From assembly GCA_028705955.1 (NCBI GenBank), contig JAQWCN010000001.1, positions 5,247-56,491 on the forward strand: DNA of 51,245 bases, written 5' to 3'. The first letter of the stretch is position 1, and the number at the start of each line of letters is the position of its first letter. Position numbers and translations under genes: made by a program. Below are positions 8,204 to 29,495 of the stretch, in pieces. This DNA comes from Eubacteriaceae bacterium (lineage in GTDB: Bacteria; Bacillota; Clostridia; Eubacteriales; Eubacteriaceae). Under the pieces are notes generated by a model. It searched no databases. It was not told the origin of the DNA and worked only from the letters and a program-made list of their open reading frames with translations.

Positions 8204-9709
8204 ATGAAATATATGATTGGATTGGACGGTGGGCTGACCCAGACGAAAGCGGTTCTTTTTGATTTAAAAGGAGCCGAAATCAATAAAGTGATGGTTGAAA
8301 ATGATATTATTGCCGGGGGAGAGTGCCGGGAGATCGAAATGATTTCTTTTTGGGAAAAAGCAGCGGCAGCGGTCGCGTTGCTTATGGGCCAGGGACCGGC
8401 GGAGCCCAAAGACATCATGGGCATAGGGGTGACTGGCCAGGGTGAAGGCCTGTGGCCGGTAGGCGCCAATGGCAAGCCGGTGTGCAACGCCATTTTAGGC
8501 ATTGATCACCGGGCCCGGGAAGAAGCAGAATACGTCTCAAAGATTACCCCGGGAATGGGCAAGCTGATCCACCGGAATATTGGCTGCCCGGTGCGGGAAG
8601 GCAGCACGCTGATGATTTTAAAATGGATGAAAAAGCATCGTTTGGATCAATACCGGAAGATCAAAGTGGTTTTGCTGGCAAAAGACTGGCTGCGTTACTG
8701 CATGACCGGACGGATGGTCACGGATTTTTCCGATGGGGTCGCCTCTTTCCTGCGGTTTCCCAGTGGCCGGGTACCGAGCCAGATGCTCACGGTTTTGGAA
8801 TTGTCCGACGTGGTGGAAAAGCTGCCAGGGGTCCTCAATTCCACCACAATCGCCGGGACGCTGAGCCCGGGTGCGGCGGAAAAAATGGGCCTGAAGGCGG
8901 GAATTCCTGTCGGGGTGGGCGCCATGGATATGGTCGCCGCTTCGCTGGGGGTGGGGGCCATTACCCCGGGGGATGTGTCTGTGGTGCTGGGCAGCACCAA
9001 TGCATCCATGGTGGTCCACGATCACGAAGATTGCGACCCGACCCGGTACTGGCAGCATTTTGTGTGTCACGCCAAGGAAGAACTGACGCTGGAAATCATG
9101 TCCACTTTGGACATCACCGCCAATATCGAATGGGCGCTGGAAGAACTGACGGGAACCCTGGATTATCTGCTGGCGGATCATTTGGTGGAAAACGCGGAAC
9201 CGGGCAGCGGCGGCGTGGTGTTTATGCCCTATCTGGCAGCGTCCCGGGAACGGGTGACCAATGTGCCGGAAGATGCGACGGCGGCTTTTTTTGGAATGAC
9301 GGAAGAGACCAACAAACGTCAGATGCTCCGATCGGTTTACGAGGCGGTGGCATATTCCCTGAGAGATGCGATGATTGACTACCGGGACGTGAGCCGGATC
9401 ATGCTGTCCGGGGGGAATGCAGCAGAAGGGGTGCTTCCCCGGATCATTGCAGATGTCACCGACGCCACGGTTGCGGTTTCCAAAGGATCGGAATTTGCAG
9501 CCCGGGGAGCGGTGATGGCGGCAGGAATCGGTTTGGGCGCTTATCAGGATTTTGACGACGCGGTGAAACGCTGCTGCAAACTGGAACATATTTATCAGGC
9601 CAAACCCAGGGCGGTTTATCAGGACGGGTACCAGCTTTACCGCAATCTGCGCCGGAGTTTAAATGATTTTTGGGATCAGCGTCAGGTTTTTATCAAAAAA
9701 TATCAGTAA
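8204..9709 (+). CDS. FGGY-family carbohydrate kinase (xylulokinase/glycerol-kinase-like)
   Basis: The N-terminus reads YMIGLDGGLTQTKAVLFD and GVTGQGEGLWPV is present. The C-terminal FGGY block reads IMLSGGNAAEGVLPRIIADV...RGAVMAAGIGLG. SD GAGGAAGG lies upstream. Confidence 0.8.
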   Translation: MKYMIGLDGGLTQTKAVLFDLKGAEINKVMVENDIIAGGECREIEMISFWEKAAAAVALLMGQGPAEPKDIMGIGVTGQGEGLWPVGANGKPVCNAILGIDHRAREEAEYVSKITPGMGKLIHRNIGCPVREGSTLMILKWMKKHRLDQYRKIKVVLLAKDWLRYCMTGRMVTDFSDGVASFLRFPSGRVPSQMLTVLELSDVVEKLPGVLNSTTIAGTLSPGAAEKMGLKAGIPVGVGAMDMVAASLGVGAITPGDVSVVLGSTNASMVVHDHEDCDPTRYWQHFVCHAKEELTLEIMSTLDITANIEWALEELTGTLDYLLADHLVENAEPGSGGVVFMPYLAASRERVTNVPEDATAAFFGMTEETNKRQMLRSVYEAVAYSLRDAMIDYRDVSRIMLSGGNAAEGVLPRIIADVTDATVAVSKGSEFAARGAVMAAGIGLGAYQDFDDAVKRCCKLEHIYQAKPRAVYQDGYQLYRNLRRSLNDFWDQRQVFIKKYQ

Positions 9710-9711
9710 AT

Positions 9712-9741
9712 AAAAAAATCAGGCTTTTGCCTGATTTTTTA
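9712..9741. terminator. Bidirectional intrinsic terminator (kinase / pilT)
   Basis: AAAAAAATCAGGC-tttt-GCCTGATTTTTT hairpin that overlaps the pilT stop codon. Confidence 0.75.
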
Positions 9742-10800
9742 TTGCAATTTTTTTTCAAGCATGGCCGGGTTAACGGCGTGGCTGATTGCTGTTTCGGCAG
9801 TGATCCGGTCATGGGTCACTAAATTGTAGAGATAGGTATCCATGGAAAACATATCCGGCTGGGTGGAGGAATAAAGCAGGCCTCCAATTTGATGCGCCTT
9901 GTGATCCCGGATCATATTGCGCACGCCGGGAGTGACGGTGAGCACCTCAAAAGCAGGGATGAGCCGGGAATGGTCCACAGAAGGAATCAGCTGCTGGGAA
10001 ACCACGGCGCTTAAACACATGGAAAGCTGCACCGCAATCTGATTTTGCTGATTGGGCGGAAAGGCATCCACAACCCGGTCAATGGTGTCCGCCGCGCTGA
10101 TGGTGTGCATGGTGGATAAAATCAAATGGCCGGTTTCAGCAGCGGTCATGGCTACATTGATGGTTTCGTGATCCCGCATTTCCCCGAGTAGAATGACATC
10201 CGGGCTCTGGCGCAGGGCCGCGCGGAGCGCGGTGACGTAATCCTCGGTGTCGGTACCGATTTCCCGCTGGCTCACGATGCTTTTTTTATGATGGTGCAGG
10301 TGTTCCAACGGGTCTTCCAGTGTGATGATATGTTCGGCCCGGGTCTCGTTGATATGATCGATCATGCAGGCCATGGTTGTGGATTTCCCGCTGCCGGCCG
10401 GTCCGGTAACCAGAATCATGCCCTTGCGCAAATCGGCGAGGTCCGTGACACAGTCCGGAATGCCCATGGCTTTGGGATCGGGAAGGGAAAAAGAAATGAT
10501 CCGGATCACCGCGGCGTCGGTCCCCCGCTGTTTGTAAGTGCTGGCCCTGAAACGGGAAACGCCGGGCAGAGCGAAGGAAAAGTCGTCATCCCCATTTTTA
10601 TTAAAGGTATCGTAATCCCGGCCGCTGGCAAGACCGTAAATTCCCCGGACAAGGGATTCGGTATCCGAAGGCATCAGGGGTTTTTCGGTGATGTGAACCA
10701 GTTGACCGTTGACCTTGTACGTTAAGGGTAAACCGGTGACCAGAAAAACATCGGATGCTTTTTGAAGAGTTGCGTGGGTTAATATTTGTTTGATATCCAT
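9739..10800 (-). CDS. pilT: PilT-family type IV pilus retraction-type ATPase
   Basis: Walker A GPAGSGKST, the Asp box/Walker B region DVILLGEMRD and the His box LSTMHT are present. GVRNMIRDHKAHQI corresponds to the PilT-specific AIRNLIRE motif. The start is placed at MDIKQIL (nt 10800), which has SD AGGAG. Confidence 0.85.
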   Translation of the reverse strand: MDIKQILTHATLQKASDVFLVTGLPLTYKVNGQLVHITEKPLMPSDTESLVRGIYGLASGRDYDTFNKNGDDDFSFALPGVSRFRASTYKQRGTDAAVIRIISFSLPDPKAMGIPDCVTDLADLRKGMILVTGPAGSGKSTTMACMIDHINETRAEHIITLEDPLEHLHHHKKSIVSQREIGTDTEDYVTALRAALRQSPDVILLGEMRDHETINVAMTAAETGHLILSTMHTISAADTIDRVVDAFPPNQQNQIAVQLSMCLSAVVSQQLIPSVDHSRLIPAFEVLTVTPGVRNMIRDHKAHQIGGLLYSSTQPDMFSMDTYLYNLVTHDRITAETAISHAVNPAMLEKKLQ

Positions 10801-10828
10801 GGTTGCTCCTGTTGATAAAATCGTTGCG

Positions 10829-11302
10829 TTATTTGATGACATTGAGGGTGTCCTGTTGTTGCCAGCTTTGCGTGTTGACTACCTGCCACTGGGTTACGGT
10901 GTAGTAAGTCTCCCCGGGATTTTGGGGGAAGGTGGGCTGGACGCTGACCACAAGATTCTGATTTTCTTTGATGGCGATTTGGGTTGTCGCTTTTTCGGCA
11001 GCATTGTCCCAGGTCCAGCCCTCCGGCAGCACACCGGGAACCCCGGAAACGTAAGCAGCCGCGCTGCCGGCCCCGGGAGCCAGGGCAGCCAGGGCGCTGT
11101 CCAGACTGGCCAGGCGGCTATTGGCCTGATTAGAGGCGGCGTAATAGGCAGTGGTGGTCGCTTCGGTGGCTGTTGCCAGCTTTTGATCGGTGGTGGCGCT
11201 GACCAGGGACAAGGCGGCAAAAATGACCAGACACAGCACGGTAAAGATGACCAGCAAAAAAGCGGAGCCGGTGCCGACAAAACTAAAGCGTTGTTTTTCC
11301 AT
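10829..11302 (-). CDS. Pilus-operon membrane-anchored protein (single N-terminal TM, no recognisable family)
   Basis: The start is placed at MEKQRFSFVGTGSAFLLVIFTVLCLVIFAALSLVSA, which has SD GAAGGAA. The gene is tightly packed in the operon, 13 nt after the upstream stop. Confidence 0.55.
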   Translation of the reverse strand: MEKQRFSFVGTGSAFLLVIFTVLCLVIFAALSLVSATTDQKLATATEATTTAYYAASNQANSRLASLDSALAALAPGAGSAAAYVSGVPGVLPEGWTWDNAAEKATTQIAIKENQNLVVSVQPTFPQNPGETYYTVTQWQVVNTQSWQQQDTLNVIK

Positions 11303-11315
11303 AAACGTTCCTTCT

Positions 11316-11759
11316 TTAAAGTGTTTTGGGAATGTGGTAATCCGTATCCAGGGTGTACAATGTGCTGTCGTCTTCAAGTTTTTTCACTTCAAGAGTGACC
11401 CGGGTCAGATCATCGGCCGGGGTTTCCCGGACATCCATCCGGTAGACTCCGGCGTTTTGGGTACTGGGTTGCCAGTTGGCGTCGTAGTAAAGGTGAAAGC
11501 CGGCCTGGTCCGTGTTCACAGCGGGGTTCCCGGTGGCCAGTTGTGTGCCGATATGGGCAGGGTCGGCGGCAATGCATTCGGATACGCTTTGCACAGCGCT
11601 CACTGCGTTTTCCCTTAGAGCGGTGTCCCGGCTGATGACGTGGGCTTTGGCAAAGAGTTGAATACAGACAGCGCTGGCAATGGCAAAGAAGAGAATGGCC
11701 AGAATCAGCTCCATTAAGGTAAGGCTGGTTCGGGAGTGATGGGTGCGGGGCGCTTTCAT
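11316..11759 (-). CDS. Prepilin-like (pseudopilin) protein with N-terminal methylation-type motif
   Basis: MKAPRTHHSRTS/LTLMELILAILFFAIASAV is a class III signal-like segment with Glu at +5 but Ser instead of Gly at -1. The start overlaps the upstream stop (ATGA). Confidence 0.65.
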   Translation of the reverse strand: MKAPRTHHSRTSLTLMELILAILFFAIASAVCIQLFAKAHVISRDTALRENAVSAVQSVSECIAADPAHIGTQLATGNPAVNTDQAGFHLYYDANWQPSTQNAGVYRMDVRETPADDLTRVTLEVKKLEDDSTLYTLDTDYHIPKTL

Positions 11760-12259
11760 GGGGTCGCCTCCCCGGAGAAAGCCGGGCACACGTGGACGTA
11801 GGTTTCCCGGGTTTGGCCGGTGGTGTCGGTCATCTTCAGGCAGAGCAGACTGGGGGAAACCTGTTCCGGTTCAAACTTGGTGATCTCTGTGATTTTCTGT
11901 CCCTGGCCCGGGCTCACGGCGGTGCCGTCTTTGACAAAGAGTTCCATGAGTTCTCCCTGGGAGCTGTAGAGATAGGTGGTGGTACCGGCGCCTTCGCCTT
12001 CCCCGGTGATAACCACTGCGGGCTGGGTGCCGACCTGGCCCACAGTTACCCGGCCGTTGCTGTTGTTCTGGCGTATTTTTTGAGTGACATAGGTAATGGC
12101 AGTCCGGCTGGTAAAATGATCGTTGAGGTTGGTCACCGTGCCTTTATACACGTCGATACCGATGATAATCACGGCCAGTGCAGAGGCCGCGAAAGCGCAG
12201 AACAGAGCGATGACAAAGACGACATCCACGGTATGCCGGCGTTCTCCCCGGGGCGTCAT
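11756..12259 (-). CDS. Pilus-operon membrane-anchored protein (pseudopilin-sized, DUF4860-like by recollection)
   Basis: One N-terminal TM (VDVVFVIALFCAFAASALAVIIIGI) precedes a beta-rich domain. The gene has ATGA overlaps with both neighbours. Confidence 0.55.
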   Translation of the reverse strand: MTPRGERRHTVDVVFVIALFCAFAASALAVIIIGIDVYKGTVTNLNDHFTSRTAITYVTQKIRQNNSNGRVTVGQVGTQPAVVITGEGEGAGTTTYLYSSQGELMELFVKDGTAVSPGQGQKITEITKFEPEQVSPSLLCLKMTDTTGQTRETYVHVCPAFSGEATP

Positions 12260-12597
12260 GACGTCCCTCCCAATTTGACCACGGTGATATCGGGCATGAC
12301 ATTGGAGGCAAAGCCCTGATAATCTATAAAATATTTCTGGTGATCGTAGGTCAGACCGTAGTGATCCTCCAGATAGCTGACTGAAGACGGATACTGCCCT
12401 TCGACAGCGTAACAGTGGACCACGGCGTGGCGTACCGAGGTCTCCAACCGCTTGGCGCCTTCTTCCGAAGACGTTTTGGAGAATCCGGTGATGGCGGCGC
12501 AGAAGATCACAAAAAGGAGCAAGAGGACAACGGCGGAAAAAATAGCGCCCCGGTAAGGGGAAACACTTCTATCGCTGGCATCCATTCGGTTTTTCAT
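12256..12597 (-). CDS. Pilus-operon small membrane-anchored protein
   Basis: The start is placed at MKNRMDASDRS, which has SD AAGGAGGG. There is a single TM (AIFSAVVLLLLFVIFCAAITGF). The stop overlaps the start of the next gene. Confidence 0.55.
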   Translation of the reverse strand: MKNRMDASDRSVSPYRGAIFSAVVLLLLFVIFCAAITGFSKTSSEEGAKRLETSVRHAVVHCYAVEGQYPSSVSYLEDHYGLTYDHQKYFIDYQGFASNVMPDITVVKLGGTS

Positions 12598-12607
12598 GAG
12601 GCCCTCC

Positions 12608-13657
12608 TTATCCGATATTGGACATGATACCCAAAAGGGGAAACATGACCGACAGCAAAATGAGTCCGACAATGATTGAAATGATGGCCACGAGGGTTGG
12701 TTCCAGAATCGACAGCATATGTTCGATGGCGTCGTCCACCTCGTCGCTGTAACGGACGGCGATCCGGTTCATGGCGTCGTCCATGTTGCCGGATTTATCC
12801 CCAATGGCCAGGATCCGGTCGTAGATTCCGGAAAAAAGCTTCGCCTGGTGTAAAGCTGCGGGAAAGGATTCCCCTTCGGTCATGGCCTGCCGGCAGCAGA
12901 CAATTTTTGCTTTAAGCACCGGATGATCGGTAATGCTGTCCACCAGATCCAGACATTGATCCGGATTTAAGCCGCTGGACAGGGTCATGGACAGGCCGTT
13001 GGCAAACCGGCTCAGGGCGATTTTTTCGTTCAGGCGCCGGGTCAGGGCAAAATGGACAATAAAATGGGAAAAGTGTTTCCGGCCTTTCTCCGTTTTGCTC
13101 AGGTAAAACAGCCCGCCGGCAAGCAGCGCGAGAATGGCGATAAAGACTGCAGCGTAACGGCTCATGACCGAGCCGGCATTCAAAACAGCTCCGGCAAACC
13201 CGGTCATCTCGGTCCCCAGCATGGTAAAAACCTGATTAAAAACCGGCATCACCTGGACCATCAGCACCACGATAATCACCACCATCATGCCGATCATGAT
13301 CAGGGGGTAGGTGACCGCGCTTTTAATGCCTTTGGCGATAGACTCTTCCCGGCTGTAGTAAACCGTCAAGGAATCCAGAACATCGTCGAGCTTGCCGGAA
13401 AGTTCCCCCAGACGAACCATCTCGATGAGGTAAGAGGGAAAGACTCCGGAAGTTTTGAGGGCTTCGGAAAACGGCAGCCCCGCCATCAGCCCCTCGCTGG
13501 TGGTCTGAAGAATGGACTGGGTGTCCGGATTTTTCATATCCTCCATCATAATCATAATGCCTTCATCGGTGGAGATCCCCGCTTTAATAATCATGGCCAT
13601 CTGGCTGCAGAACGCGGCGATTTCGGTATTGTTCAGCGGTGTCAATTTTGTTTTCAT
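12608..13657 (-). CDS. GspF/PilC-family type II secretion / type IV pilus platform protein
   Basis: The protein has two T2SSF repeats (AAFCSQMAMIIKAGIS...; FANGLSMTLSSGLNPDQCL...), each followed by TM segments. SD AAGGAG lies upstream; the start is ATG 13657 or TTG 13660. Confidence 0.85.
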   Translation of the reverse strand: MKTKLTPLNNTEIAAFCSQMAMIIKAGISTDEGIMIMMEDMKNPDTQSILQTTSEGLMAGLPFSEALKTSGVFPSYLIEMVRLGELSGKLDDVLDSLTVYYSREESIAKGIKSAVTYPLIMIGMMVVIIVVLMVQVMPVFNQVFTMLGTEMTGFAGAVLNAGSVMSRYAAVFIAILALLAGGLFYLSKTEKGRKHFSHFIVHFALTRRLNEKIALSRFANGLSMTLSSGLNPDQCLDLVDSITDHPVLKAKIVCCRQAMTEGESFPAALHQAKLFSGIYDRILAIGDKSGNMDDAMNRIAVRYSDEVDDAIEHMLSILEPTLVAIISIIVGLILLSVMFPLLGIMSNIG

Positions 13658-13675
13658 CAACGAGCTCCTTTTGTT

Positions 13676-14572
13676 CTAATAGACGTATTTTGTCTGATAA
13701 TTACTGCCGTCCCCGATGTATTCCTTGACGGATTCGTTGCCGTTGTTGGCGCCCAGAGTGGGATCCATCAGGGTCCAGGCCTTGCCGTCAAACTGAATGA
13801 CGCCGTTGATCCATCCGGATTCGTCGGTATAGACAGAAATCCACGCGTGGTAGAGGGAACCGGCGTAGCCCACTTCCAGCCGGGTGGGAATATTCTGGGA
13901 GCGGAGCATGGCGGCCATCAGGGCAGTGTAGTCAAAACAAATGCCTTTGCCGGAATCCAAAATTTCGTCCACATTGGGAAGATAGTCCGAAGTGACCGTC
14001 GCGGCCTCGCTGGAATCATAGGTAATATTTTTGGTGCCATAATCGTATACGTTTTTGACCACATCCAGATCCGAATCGGCATTGGCCGCCAGATCTTTTC
14101 CCTTGGCCACCGCTTTGGAGCTGGCGTTGAAATTGACGTATTGGCTCGGGTACAGGTAAGGGCCAAAGGCGTTGGCGATGGTTACCGCTACCGTTTGACT
14201 GAAGGCGGTGGTATACTGATTGTCGTAGGCATGTTCCAGGACGGTGAGGGTATAGTCTCCGCTGTCCCCGGTTAGGGGAAAGGCAGCCCAGTCAGTCCCG
14301 AGGTTGTAGGTGTATACCGTCCCCGATGGAACGGTAATCTGAAGTTTGACTTTATCCGAGGATCCGGTGTAGTGGACCATCACGTAACCCTGATCGCTGT
14401 GGGACGCGTCGATGACGGCGGAAGCGCTCTCGTAAGTGGTGGTGCCGTCAGCGGCGGGGGTGAGCACCTGGGGGGTATTGTCCCGGGTTCCTTTTTTGCC
14501 GCATCCGCTCAAAACCAGACAGCCTGCGAGTATTCCGATAAAAAAGAGAAAGACCCATTTCTTTCGCTTCAT
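13676..14572 (-). CDS. Transglutaminase-like (Cys-His-Asp) lipoprotein, first gene of the pilus-like operon
   Basis: A lipobox is present (LVLSGC). The transglutaminase core reads GKGICFDYTALMAAMLRSQNIPTRLEVGY...YHAWISVY...LMDPT. The stop is only 18 nt upstream of the gspF-like ATG. Confidence 0.8.
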   Translation of the reverse strand: MKRKKWVFLFFIGILAGCLVLSGCGKKGTRDNTPQVLTPAADGTTTYESASAVIDASHSDQGYVMVHYTGSSDKVKLQITVPSGTVYTYNLGTDWAAFPLTGDSGDYTLTVLEHAYDNQYTTAFSQTVAVTIANAFGPYLYPSQYVNFNASSKAVAKGKDLAANADSDLDVVKNVYDYGTKNITYDSSEAATVTSDYLPNVDEILDSGKGICFDYTALMAAMLRSQNIPTRLEVGYAGSLYHAWISVYTDESGWINGVIQFDGKAWTLMDPTLGANNGNESVKEYIGDGSNYQTKYVY

Positions 14573-14660: not shown

Positions 14661-14694
14661 GTGTGACTTTGGTGTGACACAAAGGGGGTATACT
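14661..14694 (+). promoter_or_regulatory. Activator-type promoter: direct repeats GTGTGAC-N4-GTGTGAC, then 10 nt, then TATACT
   Basis: The repeats start at 14661 and 14672 (11-bp period). The -10 TATACT lies at 14689-14694. There is no good -35 hexamer. The same layout recurs at 19043-19076. Confidence 0.65.
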
Positions 14695-14768: not shown

Positions 14769-15440
14769 ATGAAGAAAGAAACAAAGAAGATCATGATTCC
14801 ACTAACCATTGGGATCATATTGATCGCTTTGGCAGTGACTTTCGCAGCTTTCTATACATCGACAAAAACCCAGGAGGATGTGTCAACCACCGATTTGGGG
14901 ATTGAACTGGTGCAGACCGGCGGCAGCGGAGCGGTCACACTGGATACCAGCAGCAAGTACAGCGGCGGGTTTTCCTACACCGGAATGCCGGGAAGCGACC
15001 CCATCGATGAACAGGTAGCGGTTAAAAATACAGGCAGCAAGCCGGCTTATATCCGGGTGACCATCAACCGCAGCTGGAAAAAGGACGGGACCAAGGTGTC
15101 GGATGTGGATCCTCAGGAAATCGGCATCGTGACCAACAGCGGAGACTGGTACGTCGATACCGCAAGTGATAAAAATCACGAACAGGTGATCTGTTATTAT
15201 AAATATCCCTTAAAAAGCGGGGAACAAACCGCCAACGTGATGGACAGCTTTACCATCATGAAAGATCTGGCGGGTCAAAACAGCAACGCTTACTCCGGTC
15301 TGCAAAGCGAAATTGATTTTAAGGCAGAAGGCATTCAGACCACATCGGCGAAAGACGCCATGCTGGCAGAATGGGGTGTCAACGTCACAATGGACAGCAG
15401 CGGCACGATCACAGCCATGCCGGCAGAACAACAGGATTAA
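14769..15440 (+). CDS. TasA/camelysin/BsaA-like secreted matrix protein with SipW-type signal peptide
   Basis: The signal reads MKKETKKIMIPLTIGIILIALAVTFAAFYTSTKT, similar to the xxAYFTD-type SipW signal. The core motif is MPGSDPIDEQVAVKNTGSKPAYIRVTI. SD AAGGAG lies upstream. Confidence 0.65.
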   Translation: MKKETKKIMIPLTIGIILIALAVTFAAFYTSTKTQEDVSTTDLGIELVQTGGSGAVTLDTSSKYSGGFSYTGMPGSDPIDEQVAVKNTGSKPAYIRVTINRSWKKDGTKVSDVDPQEIGIVTNSGDWYVDTASDKNHEQVICYYKYPLKSGEQTANVMDSFTIMKDLAGQNSNAYSGLQSEIDFKAEGIQTTSAKDAMLAEWGVNVTMDSSGTITAMPAEQQD

Positions 15441-15458: not shown

Positions 15459-16177
15459 TGAAAAAAACAATGACAGCCATCCTCGTTACGCTCCTGATGA
15501 TTTTTGGGCTGAGCGGACAGGCTCTGGCTGCAGACAGTTATGTTTTTGAAGGCGGTGCCAATGCGTTTGTCACCGACGTATCCGGCTCTGCCACCGGCGG
15601 ATTTACAGGAATGGAACCTGGGGAAACCCGGGATTTGACCTTAAGTTTAACCAACGGCGACAGTAAGGATGTCAACTTTTATATGAGTGCAGAGATTTTA
15701 AAAAATCTCGCCGAACAAGGGGATCAAAATGCCGTATACACCTTTACGATCAGCAAAAACGGAACTCCCTTCTTTGAAACGGTCATCGGCGGAGGCAGCG
15801 ACAGCCAGAACATTTCCATCGGTGCGGAATATTTAAAAGAGGATAATACGATTCTGCTGGATACCATGGCTCCGGGCCAGAAGGATACCATTACCGTTAC
15901 ACTGGCTTTGGACGGGGATTCTGCAGAAAATGTGTACATGAACCAGAATGGTAAAATTCAGCTGGTGTTTAGTGCCGGGTCGCCGGTGACCAACGAACCG
16001 GGAACCGTCATCAACCGCATTGTCCGCACCATCACCGGACAAAGCAGCACCTCGCCGGATACCGGGGTTCAGGCGGGTGACATCCTGCTGCTTGTGGCAT
16101 TTGCAGCGGTGATCGCCGGAATCATTCTCGCCATAATTCTATTGAGAAAAAAACATAAGGAGGGAAAACAGTCATGA
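15459..16177 (+). CDS. Secreted surface protein with C-terminal sortase-type sorting signal (SPDTG + TM + basic tail)
   Basis: A GTG start follows SD GGGAGGAAA. The Sec signal is ...GQALA/ADSY. A TasA-like strand motif is present (MEPGETRDLTLSLTNGDSKDVNFYM). The C-terminus reads SPDTGVQAGDILLLVAFAAVIAGIILAIILLRKKHKEGKQS. Confidence 0.7.
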
Positions 16178-17094
16178 AAACCGCACAGCGTCACTTGAGT
16201 TTTGGGTGGGCCGGACTGCTTGTCCTGACCATTGCGCTTTTCTGTTTTTCAGCCGCTCCCGTCCAGGCCGCAGACAGTTATCAAATCAGCTTTAAAGGTG
16301 GATCCCACGGGACCATCAGTTATAATGAAACCAACGAAGGGGTCAGTTACGACATCGAGGTTCCTTATCAAAGCAGTCTGGACACGAGTCAGGTCCGGGT
16401 GGTGCCGGAAGACGGCTGGTACTGTACCGGCTGGAGTCCGGAAGTGGAAAGTCCGGTGACTGAAAAAGCGACCTACGTGGCCCAGTATAAACGCATCATT
16501 GACGAAGCGGTGTATCGCGTGAATTACGTGGATACCTCCGGCAATGCCCTGGCGACCCAGGCGATCCGTAAAACCAACGCGGGAGTGGATGTGACCGAAT
16601 ACGCCGTTCCGGTGGACGGATACGCCGTGGACAGTGCTTCCAAAACGGCGACAGTGGCAAAAGAAGGAACCGAAATTACCTTCACCTATCAGTCCGCCCA
16701 GGAACCCAGTGTGGTTGACCAGGTGGAAAACGTCGTGATTCCCGGGGGAACGACCATCGCCACAACCGGCGGGGTAACGGCAGGAACCACTGCTGCAGGG
16801 AATGGGGCCAATGCCGTCACCGCAGGCGGTACCGGGACAGCCGGTAATGCGGCTGCCGGCAATGCCGGAACCGACGGAGCGGCCGCGGCGGATGGCACGA
16901 CTGACGGAACAGTTAATCAGCAGGGGCAGACCACCACGGTTGACGATAATAATGTGCCTTTGGCCAATCAGCAGGTCGGGGATCAAAAACAGATGCCAAC
17001 CTGGGGCTACATTGCGATCATTGCAGGAGCAGCGCTCATTGCCGGAAGCCTGATCACGTTACTGGTGAAGCGCCGGAAGAAAAAACAGCATTAA
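16174..17094 (+). CDS. Secreted, C-terminally membrane-anchored surface protein with MucBP-like repeat and Gly/Ala/Thr-rich stalk
   Basis: The signal is ...APVQA/ADSY. A MucBP-like block is present (YRVNYVDTSGNALATQ...EITFTYQ), followed by a low-complexity stalk (TAGTTAAGNGANAVTAGGTG...). The C-terminal TM is followed by KRRKKKQH. The start overlaps the upstream stop (ATGA). Confidence 0.65.
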   Translation: MKTAQRHLSFGWAGLLVLTIALFCFSAAPVQAADSYQISFKGGSHGTISYNETNEGVSYDIEVPYQSSLDTSQVRVVPEDGWYCTGWSPEVESPVTEKATYVAQYKRIIDEAVYRVNYVDTSGNALATQAIRKTNAGVDVTEYAVPVDGYAVDSASKTATVAKEGTEITFTYQSAQEPSVVDQVENVVIPGGTTIATTGGVTAGTTAAGNGANAVTAGGTGTAGNAAAGNAGTDGAAAADGTTDGTVNQQGQTTTVDDNNVPLANQQVGDQKQMPTWGYIAIIAGAALIAGSLITLLVKRRKKKQH

Positions 17095-17117: not shown

Positions 17118-17166
17118 AAAGAAGTCTGGGAACCGCTGTCAACGGGGCCTGGACTTCTTTGTTTTT
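17118..17166 (+). terminator. Intrinsic terminator of the TasA-like operon
   Basis: AAAGAAGTCTGGG...CCTGGACTTCTTT forms a 13-bp stem with two G-U pairs, followed by GTTTTT. Confidence 0.6.
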
Positions 17167-17176
17167 CATCAAAGAC

Positions 17177-17205
17177 TTGTCAAGAAAACGCGTAAACGGT
17201 ATAAT
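17177..17205 (+). promoter_or_regulatory. SigA-type promoter of the SARP/BTAD regulator gene
   Basis: TTGTCA, a 17-nt spacer, then TATAAT. Its position means the TTG-initiated 5' part of the tracked ORF is not translated. Confidence 0.7.
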
Positions 17206-17233
17206 AAAATCATTATATTATAATGGAAAAATA

Positions 17234-18493
17234 ATGGAAAAAGAAATACAGGATTTGGAATGGGAGCGGCACAATATGGAAATGAATGACAAGAAAAATA
17301 CGGGGTTGACCGTTAAAACCCTCGGTGGATTTTCCATTCAGGGAATGGGTGGCCACTTAAAGGAAGACGGGATACGCTCGGAAATGCTCATCAAATTGAT
17401 GGCTTACATTTTCTGCCACCACACTCAGGAAATGACGGTCCAGGAGCTGACCGATGTCCTCTGGACAGAAGAAGGCAGTGATAATCCGGCGGGAGCACTC
17501 AAAAATTTAATGTACCGGTTGCGGCTGCTGCTTAAAAAAACCTGGGGCCCCCATGATTTTATTTTAACCGGTCAGGGCGCCTACAGCTGGAATAAGGAAA
17601 TCCCCCTTGACATTGACGCGGAGGATTTCGACAAAGGCTGTAAACAGGCATCCCGGGAGCAGGATACAAATCAGAAAATTGAAGATTTAAAACAAGCACT
17701 GAGTTATTATCAGGGCACCTTTCTTCCCAAATTTTCCAGTGAATATTGGATCATGGCGCTCAGTACCTATTACCAGGGGACCTATTTGAGCGCGGTCAAA
17801 ACACTGGCTGATCTGCTGGGAAAAGAACAGCGCTATAAAGAAATGGCCCGGTGGTGCACAGTCGCCCTGCAGTACGAGCCGCTGGATGAGGACATCCATA
17901 CCGATTTGATCAAAGCCCTCATCGGCCAGAATAAGCTTAAAATGGCTATGGATCATTATAAAGAGACGGAAGCCCTGCTTTATGAAAATTTGGGGGTAGC
18001 CCCCTCGGATGAATTGCGGCGGACTTACGAAGCCCTTTTGAAAGAAACCAACAGTCAGCAGATGGATTTAAAAGCCATCGAGGAAGAACTGACAGAGAAT
18101 AACGAGAGCGGTGCTTTCCTGTGTGATTTTGGGGTGTTTAAAAAAACGTATAATCTCGAAATGCGCCGGGCTGCCCGCCTGGGGCTTTCCGTATTTGTCG
18201 TTTTGATTACGGTGGGGCCGGCCGGAAAGATGACGGTAGCCAGCCCAAACTATCTCGAAGTGATTAATGATGGCATGGACCGGCTGGAACGTGTTTTACT
18301 GGGGTGTTTGCGTTCCGGGGATGTCATTTCCAGATACAGTGGTGCCCAGTTTATTATTTTGCTGCCGACGTGTCAGTACGAGACCACCAAAATGGTTATT
18401 CAGCGTATCGAAGACAATTTTTACGAAACTGGGGACAAGCAGATTCCCAAGGTTAAACTGCATTACAGTCTTGACGAAATGGACGAAAAATAA
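17234..18493 (+). CDS. SARP/BTAD-family transcriptional activator fused to a degenerate GGDEF domain (RxxD I-site retained)
   Basis: The N-terminus has an OmpR-like winged helix (LTVKTLGGFSIQ...). The BTAD region reads LSYYQGTFLP...ALQYEPLDEDIHTDLIKAL...AMDHYKETEALLYENLGVAPSDELRRTYEALL. The C-terminus reads RSGDVISRYSGAQFIILLP, where an active domain has RxxD-xxx-RxGG(D/E)EF. The start is uncertain (17234 or 17276). Confidence 0.75.
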   Translation: MEKEIQDLEWERHNMEMNDKKNTGLTVKTLGGFSIQGMGGHLKEDGIRSEMLIKLMAYIFCHHTQEMTVQELTDVLWTEEGSDNPAGALKNLMYRLRLLLKKTWGPHDFILTGQGAYSWNKEIPLDIDAEDFDKGCKQASREQDTNQKIEDLKQALSYYQGTFLPKFSSEYWIMALSTYYQGTYLSAVKTLADLLGKEQRYKEMARWCTVALQYEPLDEDIHTDLIKALIGQNKLKMAMDHYKETEALLYENLGVAPSDELRRTYEALLKETNSQQMDLKAIEEELTENNESGAFLCDFGVFKKTYNLEMRRAARLGLSVFVVLITVGPAGKMTVASPNYLEVINDGMDRLERVLLGCLRSGDVISRYSGAQFIILLPTCQYETTKMVIQRIEDNFYETGDKQIPKVKLHYSLDEMDEK

Positions 18494-18969: not shown

Positions 18970-19016
18970 AGCCGGATCTAAAACCTGTAACGGGGAAGGA
19001 AATCCGGCTTTTTTTA
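18970..19016 (+). terminator. Intrinsic terminator after the regulator/orphan pair
   Basis: AGCCGGAT...ATCCGGCT stem followed by TTTTTTT. Confidence 0.65.
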
Positions 19017-19042: not shown

Positions 19043-19076
19043 GTGTGACTGGGATGTGACTGCCGCCTGTTATCAT
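19043..19076 (+). promoter_or_regulatory. Activator-type promoter of the adhesin gene: GTGTGAC-N4-ATGTGAC, then 10 nt, then TATCAT
   Basis: The repeats start at 19043 and 19054 (11-bp period). The -10 TATCAT lies at 19071-19076. The geometry is identical to 14661-14694. Confidence 0.65.
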
Positions 19077-19201: not shown

Positions 19202-22200
19202 ATGAACGCAGCAATCTATCAAAAAAGAATCATTCAGATCATCGGAGGACTGATGATAGCTCTCGTGGCTATGATTGGTTTGACGAATCCTGTATGGGCC
19301 GAGGATACGGCTCCCCGCACGACGGTTCAGGAAAACGGGGCTGAGGTCGTTCGTTTTGACTACAAGAGCAGTGATGTAAATGTGCTGGTCACATTGACCA
19401 ATGCCAGCGATCTGCCGGACAACGCAGTGATGTCCGTGACACCGGTAAGCCTTGACAATCAGGAAAAGGGCAAGGTTGAAGAAAAAGCCAAGGAAGAAAG
19501 CAAAGATGTCAAAAGCACCAAGGCCTACGATATCAAATTTACGGTAGACGGCAAAGAAGTGGAACCCGGAGCGACCGTTAAAGTCGCCGTCACAACGCCC
19601 CAGGTACAGGCGGGGGAAAAAGCAGCGGTTTATCATGTGAGTGATGACAAAAATTCGGTGGACAACATGGATGCCAACACTTCGGATCAGGGTCAGGTTG
19701 ATTTTAATACCAATCATTTTTCCCGGTACGTCATTATCAATTACAGCCCCAATCCGGTTAACGTGACCATTCAGAGATATTATTACAGCGATGGTGACAG
19801 CACCAATACCGCAGACAGCAATTTACAGATGATTTATAAATCCTCCAAAACCATCAAAGCTCAGGAAGACGGCAAAACCTACCAGCTCAGCGGAGTGGAT
19901 TACAATCAGGATAACTACACGTTTGTCAAAGCCACAAAGACGACAACCGTGAATGGCGAACAGAAGACGGAGGATTTCAGCCCCAGTGATCTGGTGGTAA
20001 CAGGAGACACGACGATCTCGGTGTATTACACGAGGGCGGAAGCCACAAAAAGCGGGGATACCACCTTTTATGATTACAGCATTCAAAAAGGAATCAATCA
20101 GGCCGCCAACTACAGCAATTATACGAATAACCGGGAAGAAACAAGCGCCAAAAAAAATGCCCGGATTGCCATCCACAGTTCATGGACCGGGACCAATGTA
20201 TACAGTCCGTTAAATGGAACGGCTCAGAGCATCAACGGGTATGACGGTGGCCATGACCGGGATTTATATTCCATCAAGCAGGGCATCGTCGTCGGTACGG
20301 ACAGCAGCGGGGCCGTGGTCTACGGTAAAAACACAAGCGGCACAACCCTTTCTGATCCGGGACTCTTTACGACAGACACCAAAAGCGGTAAGACCATCAT
20401 GGATGATTACCAGCTGACCTTCAAGCAGACTGGTGACGATTATCATCTGAGCACCGTTAACTGTAAAGACACGACGCATAACACCCAGGTTCAAAACGCG
20501 GGCAGCAATTTCCTGCCACTCAATAACGACACCAGAAAATTAACAGAAAACAACAACAACAGCGGTACAGATTTCTATTTTGGCATGCGTTACGATGTCG
20601 ATTTTACCCTGGGCGATTACGTTGGTCCCCTGAACTATTCCTTCACCGGGGATGATGACTTGTGGGTTATCCTGGACGGCAAAACGGTTTTGGATATGGG
20701 CGGTATCCACGGCGCTGTTAAAGGCAGTGTCAATTTATGGACCGGTGACGCCACTTACACCGGCTATCAAAGTCATTCGACGGTTGAATCCGGAACTAAA
20801 ACCCTTTCGGGGGAAGACGGTTTGTACGATCTTTTGGGGATCACCGATCCGTCCCAGCTGACCGATGCGCAAAAGAGTCAGAAACACACCATTACCATTC
20901 TCTACATGGAACGGGGCGCCGGAGAATCCAACTGTAACATGAACTTTACCCTGCCCAATGCAAAAGTAACGGAAGTCACCCAGGTTCCAAAGGGAGACTT
21001 AACCTTTAATAAAGTGGGCAAGGTTGAAACAACCGATGCGGGAACGCCTCTAGCGGACGCGACCTTTACCATTGCCAAAAAAGATACACCGGATGCAATC
21101 ATTGCCACCGCGACATCGGACGACAGCGGGACAGTGACTTTCCCGAATCTGGAAGTGGGCGAGTACGTCGTTAAGGAAGAAACCGCTCCGACCGGTTACG
21201 CCTGTGCCAACCAGACCTTTTACGTTCAGGTCACATTGAACGAAGACGGCACAACGGCGACAGCAAAGATGTATTCGGACGAAAAATATACCCAGGAAGT
21301 GACCCAGGTGGACAACTATGAAATCAACAGCCATCTGCTTCAGCAAAAAACGGCCCACGTCACCGACTGGGATAACCGGATTTACCAAATCGATTTGTAC
21401 ACATCCCAGACCGTTCCGGTTCTGAAAGAAATTAGCGGAGCCACCATTGTGGATACCATCGATTCCCGGTTTGATGTGGTGGATAAAGACGGCAACCAGC
21501 TGGCCGACGGCACCGCAGTGGATGGCGGAACCCTTAAATACAACGAACCCGGGGAAGCCTATATCATCTGGGGAAGCCAGGTCATTCCAGGGAATAACGA
21601 TGTGACCCAGGGTTGGCACAAAACCCTTTACGTTAAAGCCAAAGCCGACTATATCGGCGGCAACAACGTGCCGACCAATGTCGAATCCAAATCCGGGATT
21701 ACGGTCAGCGGGATCACCAAAAACTTTGACAATCCAAAGGTCAATGTCAAGGCCCGGTTTGCGATGAGCAACGTGACCAAAACGGTTTTCCTCGGGGACA
21801 CCGTCGACAATCAGGATTCCCAAAATGCGATGCTGACCACGGCCGGAATCAAAGATATGATTGGCGGATCTTACCAAAGCATTACCGCAGCGGCGGATAA
21901 ACTCGCCACCCAGTGGTTTACAAAAGAAGCGATGGGCAGCGGGGATCAGACAACCGTGAATCAAATGCCGGCCAACCCGACGGAAGAAGAAACCGTCTGG
22001 TATCTCAAAGCCACCTACAATTTAGGACAGGCGACAGAAGAAAGTACAAAGAATACGACCATAAACAATAAAGGTTATATTTCCGGTGACGCGACAGCCA
22101 ATGGCGTGGACAGTTTTGTTACAGGCGCCAATGATGACCAAATGGTGCGCAACGGGGTCACGACGACGTCAGAACCCAGCGTTAAAGGAAAAGAATACGG

Positions 22201-22729
22201 AGTGTATACTGTCCATGTGGTCCGGGGACAACTGATGATTACCAAGACCATTGACAATCAGTACTCCACCATCCGCAAAATCAATGCAAATCAAACTTTT
22301 GTGTTTAAGGTCGAACGCTACGACATGGACGCAAAAGGGGAAAAAGTGGGGGATACCCCAACCGACACTTTCTACGAAACCATCAACTTTGACGCCAACG
22401 CCGGAACCACAACCAGCAGCAAACTGATTTCCAACTTGAAAGCCGGTTTTTACACCGTCACCGAAGAAACAAAGTGGTCGCCGAAATACGTGATCGATGG
22501 CAGCACACCGGTTTCCCAGAGCTACTCCATCGGCATTGTCCAATCGACAGATGACAAAGGCGTGCGTACTTTTAACGGTTTGGAAGACATGAACAAGAAT
22601 CTGAAAGCAACCAACAAGTATGGAAAAGTTGCGGAAGGCAAACATTGTACCACTACCTACATGAATAAACGGACCGACTGGAACTGGCTCTCAGATACAG
22701 CCGCGGCGGTGAATGAATTTGTAAAATAA
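19202..22729 (+). CDS. Large secreted adhesin: fibro-slime/PA14-like domain plus SpaA/Cna-B-type prealbumin-fold domains; no C-terminal anchor
   Basis: The Sec signal is ...TNPVWA/EDT. The fibro-slime/PA14 signature reads GTDFYFGMRYDVDFTL...FTGDDDLWVILDGKTVLDMGGIHG. A Cna-B/SpaA-like block reads LTFNKVGK...ATFTIAKK...GTVTFPNLEVGEYVVKEETAPTGY. The C-terminus has pilin-like beta domains (GQLMITKTI...FVFKVERYD...GFYTVTEE). SD AAAGGAG lies upstream. Confidence 0.8.
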   Translation: MNAAIYQKRIIQIIGGLMIALVAMIGLTNPVWAEDTAPRTTVQENGAEVVRFDYKSSDVNVLVTLTNASDLPDNAVMSVTPVSLDNQEKGKVEEKAKEESKDVKSTKAYDIKFTVDGKEVEPGATVKVAVTTPQVQAGEKAAVYHVSDDKNSVDNMDANTSDQGQVDFNTNHFSRYVIINYSPNPVNVTIQRYYYSDGDSTNTADSNLQMIYKSSKTIKAQEDGKTYQLSGVDYNQDNYTFVKATKTTTVNGEQKTEDFSPSDLVVTGDTTISVYYTRAEATKSGDTTFYDYSIQKGINQAANYSNYTNNREETSAKKNARIAIHSSWTGTNVYSPLNGTAQSINGYDGGHDRDLYSIKQGIVVGTDSSGAVVYGKNTSGTTLSDPGLFTTDTKSGKTIMDDYQLTFKQTGDDYHLSTVNCKDTTHNTQVQNAGSNFLPLNNDTRKLTENNNNSGTDFYFGMRYDVDFTLGDYVGPLNYSFTGDDDLWVILDGKTVLDMGGIHGAVKGSVNLWTGDATYTGYQSHSTVESGTKTLSGEDGLYDLLGITDPSQLTDAQKSQKHTITILYMERGAGESNCNMNFTLPNAKVTEVTQVPKGDLTFNKVGKVETTDAGTPLADATFTIAKKDTPDAIIATATSDDSGTVTFPNLEVGEYVVKEETAPTGYACANQTFYVQVTLNEDGTTATAKMYSDEKYTQEVTQVDNYEINSHLLQQKTAHVTDWDNRIYQIDLYTSQTVPVLKEISGATIVDTIDSRFDVVDKDGNQLADGTAVDGGTLKYNEPGEAYIIWGSQVIPGNNDVTQGWHKTLYVKAKADYIGGNNVPTNVESKSGITVSGITKNFDNPKVNVKARFAMSNVTKTVFLGDTVDNQDSQNAMLTTAGIKDMIGGSYQSITAAADKLATQWFTKEAMGSGDQTTVNQMPANPTEEETVWYLKATYNLGQATEESTKNTTINNKGYISGDATANGVDSFVTGANDDQMVRNGVTTTSEPSVKGKEYGVYTVHVVRGQLMITKTIDNQYSTIRKINANQTFVFKVERYDMDAKGEKVGDTPTDTFYETINFDANAGTTTSSKLISNLKAGFYTVTEETKWSPKYVIDGSTPVSQSYSIGIVQSTDDKGVRTFNGLEDMNKNLKATNKYGKVAEGKHCTTTYMNKRTDWNWLSDTAAAVNEFVK

Positions 22730-23123: not shown

Positions 23124-23207
23124 TTATCTGGATGCTTTCATGGATTCAACTTCAGCTTTGAGTTCCTGAATTTGTTTTAAAATTTCATTCATTGCATTGT
23201 AGCCCAT
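23124..23207 (-). CDS. Micropeptide 2 (27 aa): MGYNAMNEILKQIQELKAEVESMKASR
   Basis: Found by manual translation. SD AAAGGAGA lies 7 nt before the ATG and the stop is TAA. It shares the xYNxxxElLkqIqELKaEl core with its neighbours. Confidence 0.6.
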   Translation of the reverse strand: MGYNAMNEILKQIQELKAEVESMKASR

Positions 23208-23284
23208 TGAGTTTTCTCCTTTCTGTTTTACTTTCATTATAAGAGTTATCCGATATCCGGATGGATTTACACGTTAAAAACGGT

Positions 23285-23365
23285 TCAGGCGTTTTTCAGT
23301 GAAGCAAGTTCAGATTTTAATTCCTGGATTTCCTGGAGCAATACTTCGTATGGATTGTAATTCAT
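23285..23365 (-). CDS. Micropeptide 3 (26 aa): MNYNPYEVLLQEIQELKSELASLKNA
   Basis: Found by manual translation. SD AAAGGAGA lies 7 nt before the ATG and the stop is TGA. It shares 15 of 26 residues with micropeptide 1, although many codons differ synonymously. Confidence 0.6.
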   Translation of the reverse strand: MNYNPYEVLLQEIQELKSELASLKNA

Positions 23366-28685: not shown

Positions 28686-29495
28686 ATGGATAACAAAAAG
28701 AAAGCCCGCCGGATTGTTATTATCATGATCGTTATGATTGCAGTTGTGGCGGCTTTGGGCGCGGGTCTCTGGATCGAGGAACAAAGCGATGAAAAGAACC
28801 GCCAGCAGGGCGCCGATACACTGGCGAAAGCCGTTGGAGAGCGCTACACCCAAATTGTACAAAATACCGGAGAAACGGGTGTTTGGGCTGCTTACCTGGA
28901 AAATCCGGCGGATGAAACCGGGGAAACAAAAGCCCAGGCGGCCTTAAAGACAGTCAAGTCCAAAACGGCGGACAGTCTATCCGTGACGCTGATGAATACA
29001 TCCGGCCAGGTTTTGATGTCAACCGATGGGGGACAAACCGGAAAAAATGCCGGGAATACCAACGCCCTTAAGCAATTGAACACCGCCGGCCAGGTTTACA
29101 GTGAACTCAGCGTGGAAAAGGGGCTGCCGGTGATGGTAGTGAGCCGGCCACTCATCCAGGGCAATGATACAATCGTTGGTGTACTCGAAATAAAAAGTGA
29201 CCTTTCAGCGCTCAAAAATCAGGTTGCAGATCAGCTGGACAGCAATATGAGTTTTTGGATCGTTGATAATAACGGGAAAGGGCTGCGCTTGACGGCCAAG
29301 GCAGGCTGGGAAACGGCTCTCCGGGATTTGTCCAAAGACAAAGAAGGCCCTTCGGCGCTGGCTGTCGGTCTGGAGCAGCAGACCTGGCAGGAATCCCAGG
29401 GTATACTCAGTTACAGCATGGATGGGGAACAGACCAAGGCGGCCTATAAAACGATTGATAGTCTGGGCTGGGCGGTTGTGGCCGGCCCACGATAA
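28686..29495 (+). CDS. Membrane-anchored extracytoplasmic Cache/PDC-like sensor domain protein with no output domain
   Basis: One N-terminal TM is followed by an alpha/beta domain of about 230 aa that resembles a double-PDC sensor (weak call). The ORF ends where TM2 would be expected. Confidence 0.45.
   Translation: MDNKKKARRIVIIMIVMIAVVAALGAGLWIEEQSDEKNRQQGADTLAKAVGERYTQIVQNTGETGVWAAYLENPADETGETKAQAALKTVKSKTADSLSVTLMNTSGQVLMSTDGGQTGKNAGNTNALKQLNTAGQVYSELSVEKGLPVMVVSRPLIQGNDTIVGVLEIKSDLSALKNQVADQLDSNMSFWIVDNNGKGLRLTAKAGWETALRDLSKDKEGPSALAVGLEQQTWQESQGILSYSMDGEQTKAAYKTIDSLGWAVVAGPR

Follow-up and report, generated by a model that had tools for sequence, protein, structure and literature searches.

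The 51,245-nucleotide stretch of Eubacteriaceae DNA analyzed here (contig JAQWCN010000001.1; hereafter the window) carries, between a three-gene operon for matrix proteins and a gene for a giant adhesin, a gene for a SARP-type regulator whose C-terminus has a degenerate GGDEF domain. The regulator gene is followed by a gene for a 146-residue protein, termed the partner in what follows, and the same direct-repeat operator precedes both the matrix operon and the adhesin gene (Table 1). This order (matrix genes 1, 2 and 3, the regulator gene, a gene for about 145 aa, the operator and the giant adhesin gene) is conserved across loci. A preliminary description of this DNA had set the regulator between the matrix operon and the adhesin gene and had suggested that it is a class II activator responding to cyclic di-GMP (c-di-GMP); its placement of the gene stands, except that the partner gene, which it missed, lies before the adhesin promoter.

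The comparisons below draw on 1.53 Mb of sequence in 81 related loci, which belong to Eubacteriaceae, Lachnospiraceae, Clostridium paraputrificum, Longicatena and others. These loci yielded 85 distinct members of the regulator family, 37-61% identical to the query (the locus-derived set), and counts of neighbouring genes, both orthologs and genes of the GGDEF/EAL types, refer to 80 loci. A second, representative set of 151 sequences consists of 150 cluster representatives, at most 50% identical to each other, and the window protein. Relatives of the regulator were found in about 200 species-level genomes, including those of Blautia, Roseburia, Agathobacter, Eubacterium, Robinsoniella and Clostridium paraputrificum, and the identical 419-residue gene call is present in public assemblies of Eubacteriaceae metagenome-assembled genomes. 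Databases name such proteins 'BTAD domain-containing putative transcriptional regulator'; the family is widespread in gut Clostridia and unstudied. An exhaustive search with the C-terminal domain only returned 1196 clusters at E<=1e-3 and 312 at E<=1e-10 (50%-identity representatives), and nearly all of the matching proteins are about 400 aa long with the domain at the C-terminus. Two paralogous regulators are encoded in tandem in six loci (L011, L012, L014, L035, L041 and L067), with the partner gene between them in L011, L012 and L014.

Table 1. Coordinates of the regulator, its domains and motifs, and the surrounding genes and control elements in the window
Feature	Position (nt)	Strand	Details
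Divergent cluster: T2SSE ATPase, DUF4860-type pseudopilin-like genes, T2SSF, transglutaminase-like lipoprotein	9739-14572	-	
Operator 1, TGTGAC-N5-TGTGAC direct repeat, 11-bp period, before matrix operon	14662-14678	+	followed by 10 nt and -10 TATACT (14689-14694)
Matrix gene 1, remote BsaA/TasA family, SipW-type signal peptide	14769-15440	+	TIGR04090 E 1.5e-4; ortholog in 47/80 loci
Matrix gene 2, secreted protein, C-terminal membrane-anchor-like tail	15461-16177	+	ortholog in 47/80 loci, same order
Matrix gene 3, weak MucBP-like surface protein, C-terminal anchor-like tail	16174-17094	+	ortholog in 37/80 loci
Near-consensus sigma-70 promoter of the regulator gene, TTGTCA-17-TATAAT	17177-17205	+	11/12 match; without TGTGAC repeat
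Regulator	17234-18493	+	ATG at 17234 inside open reading frame (ORF) 17159-18493; 419 aa
Winged helix of regulator	17303-17593	+	residues ~24-120; recognition helix includes NPAGALKNLMYRLR
BTAD domain of regulator	17621-18040	+	residues 130-269; Pfam
Minimal GGDEF-fold domain of regulator	18110-18478	+	residues 293-415
R311 to R315, C-terminal end of alpha0	18164-18178	+	candidate secondary inhibitory site (I-site) near PleD R313; conservation
I-site RxxD, R360-S-G-D363	18311-18322	+	equivalent to PleD R359/D362 by alignment
Degenerate active site (A-site) SGAQF, S369-G-A-Q-F373	18338-18352	+	replaces GG(D/E)EF; family motif S-x-x-Q-[FY]
R391	18404-18406	+	equivalent to PleD R390, third primary I-site residue; hhalign
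Partner, 146 aa	18525-18965	+	ribosome-binding site AGGAGGG; 32 nt past regulator stop codon
Terminator-like hairpin AGCCGGAT...ATCCGGCT, then T-run	18970-19015	+	read from the sequence; ends the regulator-partner transcription unit
Operator 2, TGTGAC-N5-TGTGAC, before adhesin gene	19044-19060	+	followed by 10 nt and -10 TATCAT (19071-19076)
Giant secreted adhesin, 1175 aa, fibro-slime and SpaA/CnaB-type domains	19202-22729	+	ortholog in 43/80 loci

Domain architecture of the regulator

The SARP layout that had been proposed for the N-terminal part, an OmpR-type winged helix followed by a BTAD domain, was recovered by Pfam, by searches of the PDB, in the AlphaFold2 (AF2) model and by Foldseek. 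Pfam matched BTAD (PF03704) at residues 130-269 with E 3.7e-20 and over profile positions 4-146 of 146; its Trans_reg_C match in the window protein is weak (residues 53-114, E 0.046), and many homologs of the regulator carry a precomputed PF00486 match. A sequence search of the PDB aligned residues 55-271 with AfsR (8hvr and 8k60; residues 55-269 in the 8hvr alignment). In the AF2 model, which was built on 43 family members and has a mean predicted local distance difference test score (pLDDT) of 89.5, the N-terminal part folds as a helix-turn-helix followed by a beta-hairpin wing, and Foldseek matched it in the PDB to the SARP domain of AfsR in its RNA polymerase complexes 8k60 and 8hvr (E ~1e-10, 1.8e-10; TM score, TMt, 0.73-0.75) and also to EmbR. 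The recognition helix, NPxGALKNLxYRLR (NPAGALKNLMYRLR in the window protein), is near-invariant in the family, which fits the invariant operator described below.

The GGDEF fold that had been claimed for the C-terminus was supported by Pfam, a profile search of the PDB, hhalign and Foldseek, but as a truncated core and not as a full domain. Pfam matched PF00990 at residues 352-396 with 26.4 bits, against a gathering cut-off of 23.8 (E 6.5e-6), over profile positions 63-107 of 161, and NCBIfam returned AfsR/SARP models together with a series of diguanylate cyclases, all far under their equivalog cut-offs. Searching the PDB by sequence aligned the C-terminus with the GGDEF domains of SadC, TM1788, DgcR, WspR and DosC, while the profile search returned 22 GGDEF chains with E down to 1e-7 and hhalign paired the domain with that of PleD at 94% probability. 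Foldseek added more than 40 diguanylate-cyclase chains, among them DosC 4zve (TMt 0.61, root-mean-square deviation 2.7 Å) and Thermotoga maritima 4urg, with TMt 0.55-0.69 against DosC, TM1788 and the T. maritima cyclase, and with an identity to cyclases of about 20-25%. According to AF2 the domain is a ferredoxin-like GGDEF core (beta-alpha-beta-beta-alpha-beta) preceded by an N-terminal helix, alpha0, with the elements beta (295-297), alpha0 (299-316), beta1 (320-329), alpha2 (338-358), beta2 (364-369), beta3 (372-378), alpha3 (382-398) and beta4 (407-415); helix alpha1 and the C-terminal alpha4-beta5, the C-terminal third, are missing. HMMER had paired the segment 'GAFLCDFGVFKK' with the 'DxDHFK' of cyclases, a pairing that we rejected since the AF2 topology and the profile alignments place this segment in the turn before alpha0.

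We regard the architecture of winged helix, BTAD and C-terminal GGDEF-fold domain as practically certain, and the order of the three domains that had been proposed for confirmation was upheld by both profile and structure searches. The regulator can be described as a SARP of 'medium size' with a degenerate GGDEF domain as its presumed sensor.

Operators and target promoters

With no mismatch allowed, the window contains exactly two copies of the direct repeat TGTGAC-N5-TGTGAC, while 100 shuffles gave none. The two copies read GTGTGAC (14661-67) and GTGTGAC (14672-78) before the matrix operon, and GTGTGAC (19043-49) and ATGTGAC (19054-60) before the adhesin gene. That both units have a matching direct-repeat promoter had been noticed previously, and the operator proved to be conserved: over the 81 loci, the motif TGTGAC-N5-TGTGAC-N10-TAnnnT was found 128 times on the strand of the regulator and never on the opposite strand, against an expected 0.09 per strand, and 62 of the 81 loci carry it with this geometry. 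The consensus is TGTGACc...gTGTGACt-N10-TATAaT. Forty-six of the sites lie upstream of the regulator gene, at a median distance of 2.7 kb and at the start of the three-gene operon, and 81 lie downstream, 49 of them before ORFs of more than 800 aa. When one mismatch was allowed in the loci that have no exact match, 13 further sites appeared on the plus strand versus one on the minus strand. In the relatives, sites also precede genes for BsaA-family proteins and for proteins whose signal peptides are of the SipW-dependent type (TIGR04088, above cut-off), and in one locus the gene for a SipW-type signal peptidase itself. In six Blautia-type loci (L019, L020, L022, L027, L035 and L041) a one-mismatch site, TATGACC..GGTGTGACC-N10-TATAAT, stands just upstream of the regulator gene (at ~9300-9570; at 1688 in L027), which suggests positive autoregulation of the regulator in those loci.

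The target promoters combine a good -10 element with the lack of a -35 hexamer at 16-18 bp. In SARP promoters the repeats have a period of 11 or 22 bp, the 3' repeat lies 8 bp away from the -10 element, with the afs box centred at -29.5 (PMC10936776). The geometry seen here fits this rule, with a gap to the -10 element of 9-10 nt, according to the way in which the repeat unit is delimited, compared with 8 in actinomycetes. If transcription starts about 7 nt after the -10 box, as we infer, the 17-bp site would occupy positions -39 to -23 or so. This does not agree with the 'class II' label given to the activator in the preliminary description, since such a site resembles the afs box at -29.5 and not a site at -41.5, and the mode of action at the afs box has been set apart from class II at -41.5 by its authors (PMC10936776). 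An alternative reading of the promoters, GTGACA-16-AATACT, was discarded, since across loci it is only the N10-TATAnT arrangement that is conserved. The regulator gene has a near-consensus promoter of its own, which implies that control of the regulator is post-translational, and an Rfam scan of the window returned no riboswitch or other RNA, and no tRNAs were found, so that a c-di-GMP riboswitch is not the local control element.

On the strength of these sequence features we consider it highly likely that the regulator acts as the SARP activator of this regulon, with predicted binding to the operator and activation of the promoters, and it very likely activates the adjacent genes for biofilm fibres and the giant adhesin. 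One might object that the resemblance to GGDEF domains and the repeats both arose by chance and that this is no more than a small SARP of the ordinary kind bearing an unrelated tail, a notion in keeping with the fact that the Pfam match covers only part of the GGDEF profile. We find this scarcely credible and regard it as refuted by the 22 chains of the profile search, the hhalign match to PleD, the Foldseek matches and the one-stranded excess of operators over expectation.

The degenerate GGDEF core and its I-site

The segment RSGD-VISRY-SGAQF (nt 18311-18352) aligned column for column with R-x-x-D-x5-GG(D/E)EF of SadC, TM1788, DgcR and PleD in HMMER and hhalign, which confirms the alignment given earlier for this motif, including its two consequences, the loss of the catalytic GGDEF sequence and the retention of RxxD. 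For the comparison with PleD, the residue numbering was first checked against the PDB chains. Opposite the PleD Mg2+ ligand D327 stands T326 (T or S in the family), the PleD residues N335 and D344 correspond to variable positions, and GGEEF is replaced by SGAQF; with the Mg/GTP residues and the GGDEF motif lost, the domain cannot be a cyclase. In cyclases, helix alpha1, absent here, bears the guanine-binding Asn/Asp. R360 and D363 align with PleD R359 and D362, and in addition R391 aligns with PleD R390. These three PleD residues make up the primary inhibitory site, which binds intercalated c-di-GMP, and PleD R313 is the secondary I-site.

The same residues stand out by their conservation. Among the C-terminal 134 residues, only C297, R315, R360, D363, Q372 and R391 are invariant in all 85 locus-derived sequences. 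For three positions specified in advance, the probability of all falling within a set of 6 invariant positions out of 134 is 5e-5. In the representative set, R360 and D363 are each present in 151/151 sequences, R391 in 147/149, Q372 in 150/151 and R315 in 146/147, while R311 is kept in 82/85 locus-derived and 143/147 representative sequences. RxxD itself is no structural necessity, since of the intact GGDEF enzymes that these loci also encode, only 7 of 11 have it. These invariant residues lead us to predict that the C-terminal domain binds c-di-GMP at the retained I-site, for which we see the odds as somewhat better than even. Two cysteines were also noted in the core: Cys297 (18122-18124), invariant in the locus-derived set (85/85) and present in 143/146 representative sequences, and Cys380 (18371-18373), frequent at 76/85; they could form a structural, redox or metal site.

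Genes for c-di-GMP metabolism adjoin the cassette in some relatives. In E. callanderi (L004, 1-2390) a GGDEF-EAL gene and a dCache-GGDEF gene lie next to it, in a Blautia sp. (L015, 8399-9871) an intact GGDEF gene is placed between the partner and regulator genes, and in L032 (3198-8807) a GGDEF gene and a GGDEF-EAL gene come directly before the partner and regulator genes. That these neighbouring signalling genes are of the GGDEF/EAL types also speaks against the idea that the pocket binds another nucleotide, such as cyclic GMP-AMP (cGAMP), a different cyclic dinucleotide, GTP or (p)ppGpp, and that the regulator reports this signal in place of c-di-GMP. The domain is divergent enough for this to be asked, with the low identity to cyclases given above; the A-site of a degenerate GGDEF domain can still accept GTP, and Hypr GGDEFs handle cGAMP. 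However, the A-site and the GTP-binding elements are gone, and RxxD together with an R390-type arginine constitutes the guanine-specific c-di-GMP I-site of the PleD, WspR and PelD structures, so that we hold a ligand other than c-di-GMP to be very improbable.

Our favoured explanation, to which we assign a probability of about 0.55 as a whole, is that the regulator is a c-di-GMP-gated SARP activator of the matrix and adhesin genes. The regulator would be made from its own near-consensus promoter and controlled after translation. Its dead GGDEF core would make no c-di-GMP and would instead bind c-di-GMP at R360, D363 and R391, and an intercalated c-di-GMP dimer would bridge this I-site to the alpha0 arginines R311/R315 of a second protomer. 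The bridged dimer thus favoured would be the one that the tandem repeats need: by analogy with the AfsR-RNA polymerase structures, two protomers would occupy about -39 to -23 in a head-to-tail arrangement, taking the place of the -35 contact and bringing in RNA polymerase. The fibres and the adhesin would thus be produced when c-di-GMP is high, and the co-transcribed partner would modulate the regulator.

The direction of the response is the more tentative part of this scheme, and positive control of the regulon by c-di-GMP falls, in our judgement, just short of an even chance. The opposite arrangement would have c-di-GMP bind and switch the activator off, through a non-productive dimer as in product-inhibited PleD or WspR, or would have the protein repress by promoter occlusion. 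I-site cross-linking is indeed inhibitory in cyclases, and the operator overlaps the core promoter. Yet induction by c-di-GMP is the general pattern for matrix and adhesin genes, a good -10 element with no -35 element at 16-18 bp is the hallmark of activator-dependent SARP promoters, and SARPs are activators (PMC10936776), which together make such a switch-off or repressor mode improbable.

Several observations weigh against the favoured explanation. The GGDEF core is truncated, without alpha1 and alpha4-beta5, and we know of no case in which c-di-GMP binding by so minimal a GGDEF domain was shown. In hhalign, PleD R313 stands opposite R312, so that the equivalence of R311/R315 to PleD R313 is approximate only, and the invariant arginine and aspartate residues could be a protein-protein interface instead, for example with the partner. 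The window has no GGDEF/EAL cyclase or phosphodiesterase gene. Such a gene lies no more than 10 kb away in 18 of 80 loci, but this count, from regex-based gene calls in these loci alone, is suggestive only and does not establish enrichment over a genome background. Ten of 82 loci have no recognisable TGTGAC site even at one mismatch (L085, L026, L029, L042, L043, L062, L067, L076, L078 and L080); these include the locus of the fusion protein P0264, described below, and L062, which has a single opposite-strand match only, and they may have a diverged operator or a contig that ends too early. Finally, whether c-di-GMP acts positively or negatively is guessed from the broad rule that high c-di-GMP means a sessile life.

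Partner protein, related systems and neighbouring genes

The partner gene follows the regulator gene closely, and a terminator-like hairpin, missed by a simple terminator scan because of its long loop, ends the unit. Of 80 loci, 65 have a partner ortholog, which in most cases lies no more than about 30 nt from the regulator stop codon; in Blautia-type loci the gene lies just upstream of the regulator gene. A single-sequence search with the partner matched only itself, and a profile of the locus-derived orthologs was needed to find its homologs. In three independent clusters (P0259, P0264 and P0303; 548-558 aa) the partner is fused to the regulator; for P0264, which has the usual gene context in its NCBI genome, hhalign identified residues 408-545 as the partner with 99% probability and E 8e-18. 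These fusions provide Rosetta-stone evidence that the regulator and the partner act together, and the partner most probably binds the regulator and modulates it. Neither Pfam nor NCBIfam returned a match for the partner, all 151 of 151 homologs in the database are 'hypothetical' and without a Pfam domain, and no PilZ motifs were seen by eye in its sequence. Its AF2 model (pLDDT 83) consists of two beta-beta-beta-alpha units, for which the best Foldseek match in the PDB was no better than E 0.6, and its most conserved segment, G-x-PQ...RSF...Y-G-P (residues ~53-78), is predicted to be disordered.

The partner is central to the view that the SARP activator is ligand-independent and serves the same regulon, with its signal coming via the partner. 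The GGDEF core would then be a dimerisation module or a docking surface for the partner, and the invariant R360, D363, R391 and R315 would form interface salt bridges. The wide retention of the partner and its fusion to the regulator in three lineages are what such a view would lead one to expect, as is a conserved but disordered segment of the kind that folds on a binding partner; the truncation of the GGDEF domain and the lack of c-di-GMP genes in the window point the same way. On the other hand, the invariant residues are exactly the three c-di-GMP contacts of PleD with the same spacing, which is not expected of an interface, the triad is still invariant although in 15 of 80 loci the examined stretch contains no partner gene, and cyclase genes are embedded in some of the cassettes. 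We therefore consider a ligand-independent activator unlikely, albeit a serious contender, and retain c-di-GMP gating as the favoured explanation.

The winged helix and BTAD domain are shared, by sequence and by Foldseek, with AfsR and the other large SARPs of Streptomyces and with EmbR of Mycobacterium tuberculosis, and AfsR-type SARPs have the same type of direct-repeat operator, with an 11-bp period, abutting the -10 element and accompanied by a poor -35. AfsR and EmbR also bear an extra C-terminal module that is presumed to gate the SARP domain; however, this is NOD/TPR in AfsR and FHA in EmbR, whereas it is a degenerate GGDEF core here. The repeat likewise differs, TGTGAC replacing the TCGAG-type heptamer of actinomycetes, and the hosts are Clostridia (Eubacteriaceae, Lachnospiraceae and others) with surface and matrix targets in place of the antibiotic clusters of Streptomyces SARPs. 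In comparison with PleD and WspR, the I-site residues correspond one to one and conserved arginines close to the position of PleD R313 end helix alpha0, but the regulator has no catalytic residues and no receiver domains, its fold is truncated and its output is DNA binding.

The loss of the A-site with RxxD kept five residues upstream is shared with PopA of Caulobacter, PelD of Pseudomonas, YdaK of B. subtilis, PssE of Listeria and SgmT of Myxococcus. The regulator also keeps the third arginine, at the position of PleD R390, and its output concerns the matrix and the cell surface, as in PopA/PelD-type receptors. Those five proteins act via protein contacts, on exopolysaccharide synthases or by localisation and none is known to have a DNA-binding domain, whereas the GGDEF core of the regulator is fused to a transcription activator, is shorter than the PopA/PelD type and is so far a predicted c-di-GMP binder only. 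Among the transcription factors that bind c-di-GMP (BldD, VpsT, FleQ, MrkH, Clp, BrlR and LtmA), direct read-out controls matrix or adhesin genes in the manner proposed here, and the proposed ligand-mediated dimerisation resembles that of BldD and VpsT (PMC4151990, PMC3359988), but none of them is known to have a GGDEF I-site as sensor or a SARP as output.

In the literature we found no SARP, or any DNA-binding protein, that senses c-di-GMP via a GGDEF I-site, and a 2025 review of c-di-GMP effectors contains no such case (PMC12564702). Neither did we find a characterised regulator that combines a SARP with a degenerate GGDEF domain, in agreement with what had been stated at the outset, and the literature yielded nothing pertinent on SARPs of Lachnospiraceae or on a link between SARPs and SipW/TasA. 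What is new here is the joining of a SARP to a dead GGDEF domain of the I-site type, as no described member of either family has the module of the other. To our knowledge, c-di-GMP in Clostridia has so far been known to act mostly via riboswitches, and protein effectors are scarce. If the favoured explanation is true, it would provide a direct link from c-di-GMP to transcription in Clostridia and a control of biofilm fibres and large adhesins that bears on gut colonisation and aggregation; it would also add a new type of sensor to the SARP family outside the actinomycetes and would mean that a GGDEF I-site can be put to new use as the pocket in which a DNA-binding protein takes up its ligand. 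The broadest form of the proposal is that this is the first transcription-factor family to read c-di-GMP via a GGDEF I-site, with a c-di-GMP-bridged dimer on TGTGAC repeats, gating by a partner of unseen fold, and a role as master switch for SipW-dependent fibres and giant adhesins in many gut Lachnospiraceae and Eubacteriaceae; we put this forward as a possibility against which we would still wager. The operator is sharp enough for genome-wide prediction of the regulon, and an ortholog, P0068, is present in the tractable relative E. limosum / E. callanderi, with four operator sites in locus L004, which opens the hypothesis to direct test.

With regard to the target genes, the product of matrix gene 1 scored 21.6 bits against TIGR04090, below the 60-bit cut-off, while 21 of 30 of its orthologs match that model (best E 3e-11, all below the cut-off) and three match TasA. 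This pattern suggests remote homology to the BsaA/TasA family and not curated membership, and it is in this sense that the earlier naming of the flanking operon as TasA-like is justified. In C. perfringens, the sipW-bsaABC operon likewise encodes SipW-dependent fibre proteins of the BsaA/TasA family and has a type IV pilus/T2SS-like export cluster as its neighbour (PMC7395162, PMC11580942), but there control is exerted by the BsaRS two-component system, encoded in the operon (PMC7395162), in the position taken here by the SARP-GGDEF regulator and the 146-residue partner. The divergent T2SSE/T2SSF cluster (9739-14572) shows synteny with the cassette in many loci and contains no TGTGAC site. It is possibly the export machine for the matrix proteins; the Bsa proteins of C. 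perfringens depend on type IV pili for secretion (PMC11580942).

Beyond the adhesin gene, two tandem tiny ORFs on the minus strand (23124-23237 and 23285-23365) encode similar products, MGYNAMNEILKQIQELKAEVESMKASR and MNYNPYEVLLQEIQELKSELASLKNA, and sit in a gap of low GC content (~43%). Further downstream, at 28686-29495 on the plus strand, lies a gene for a 269-residue protein with a membrane anchor and a dCache_1 sensor domain and without an output domain, which may be a truncated or split sensor.

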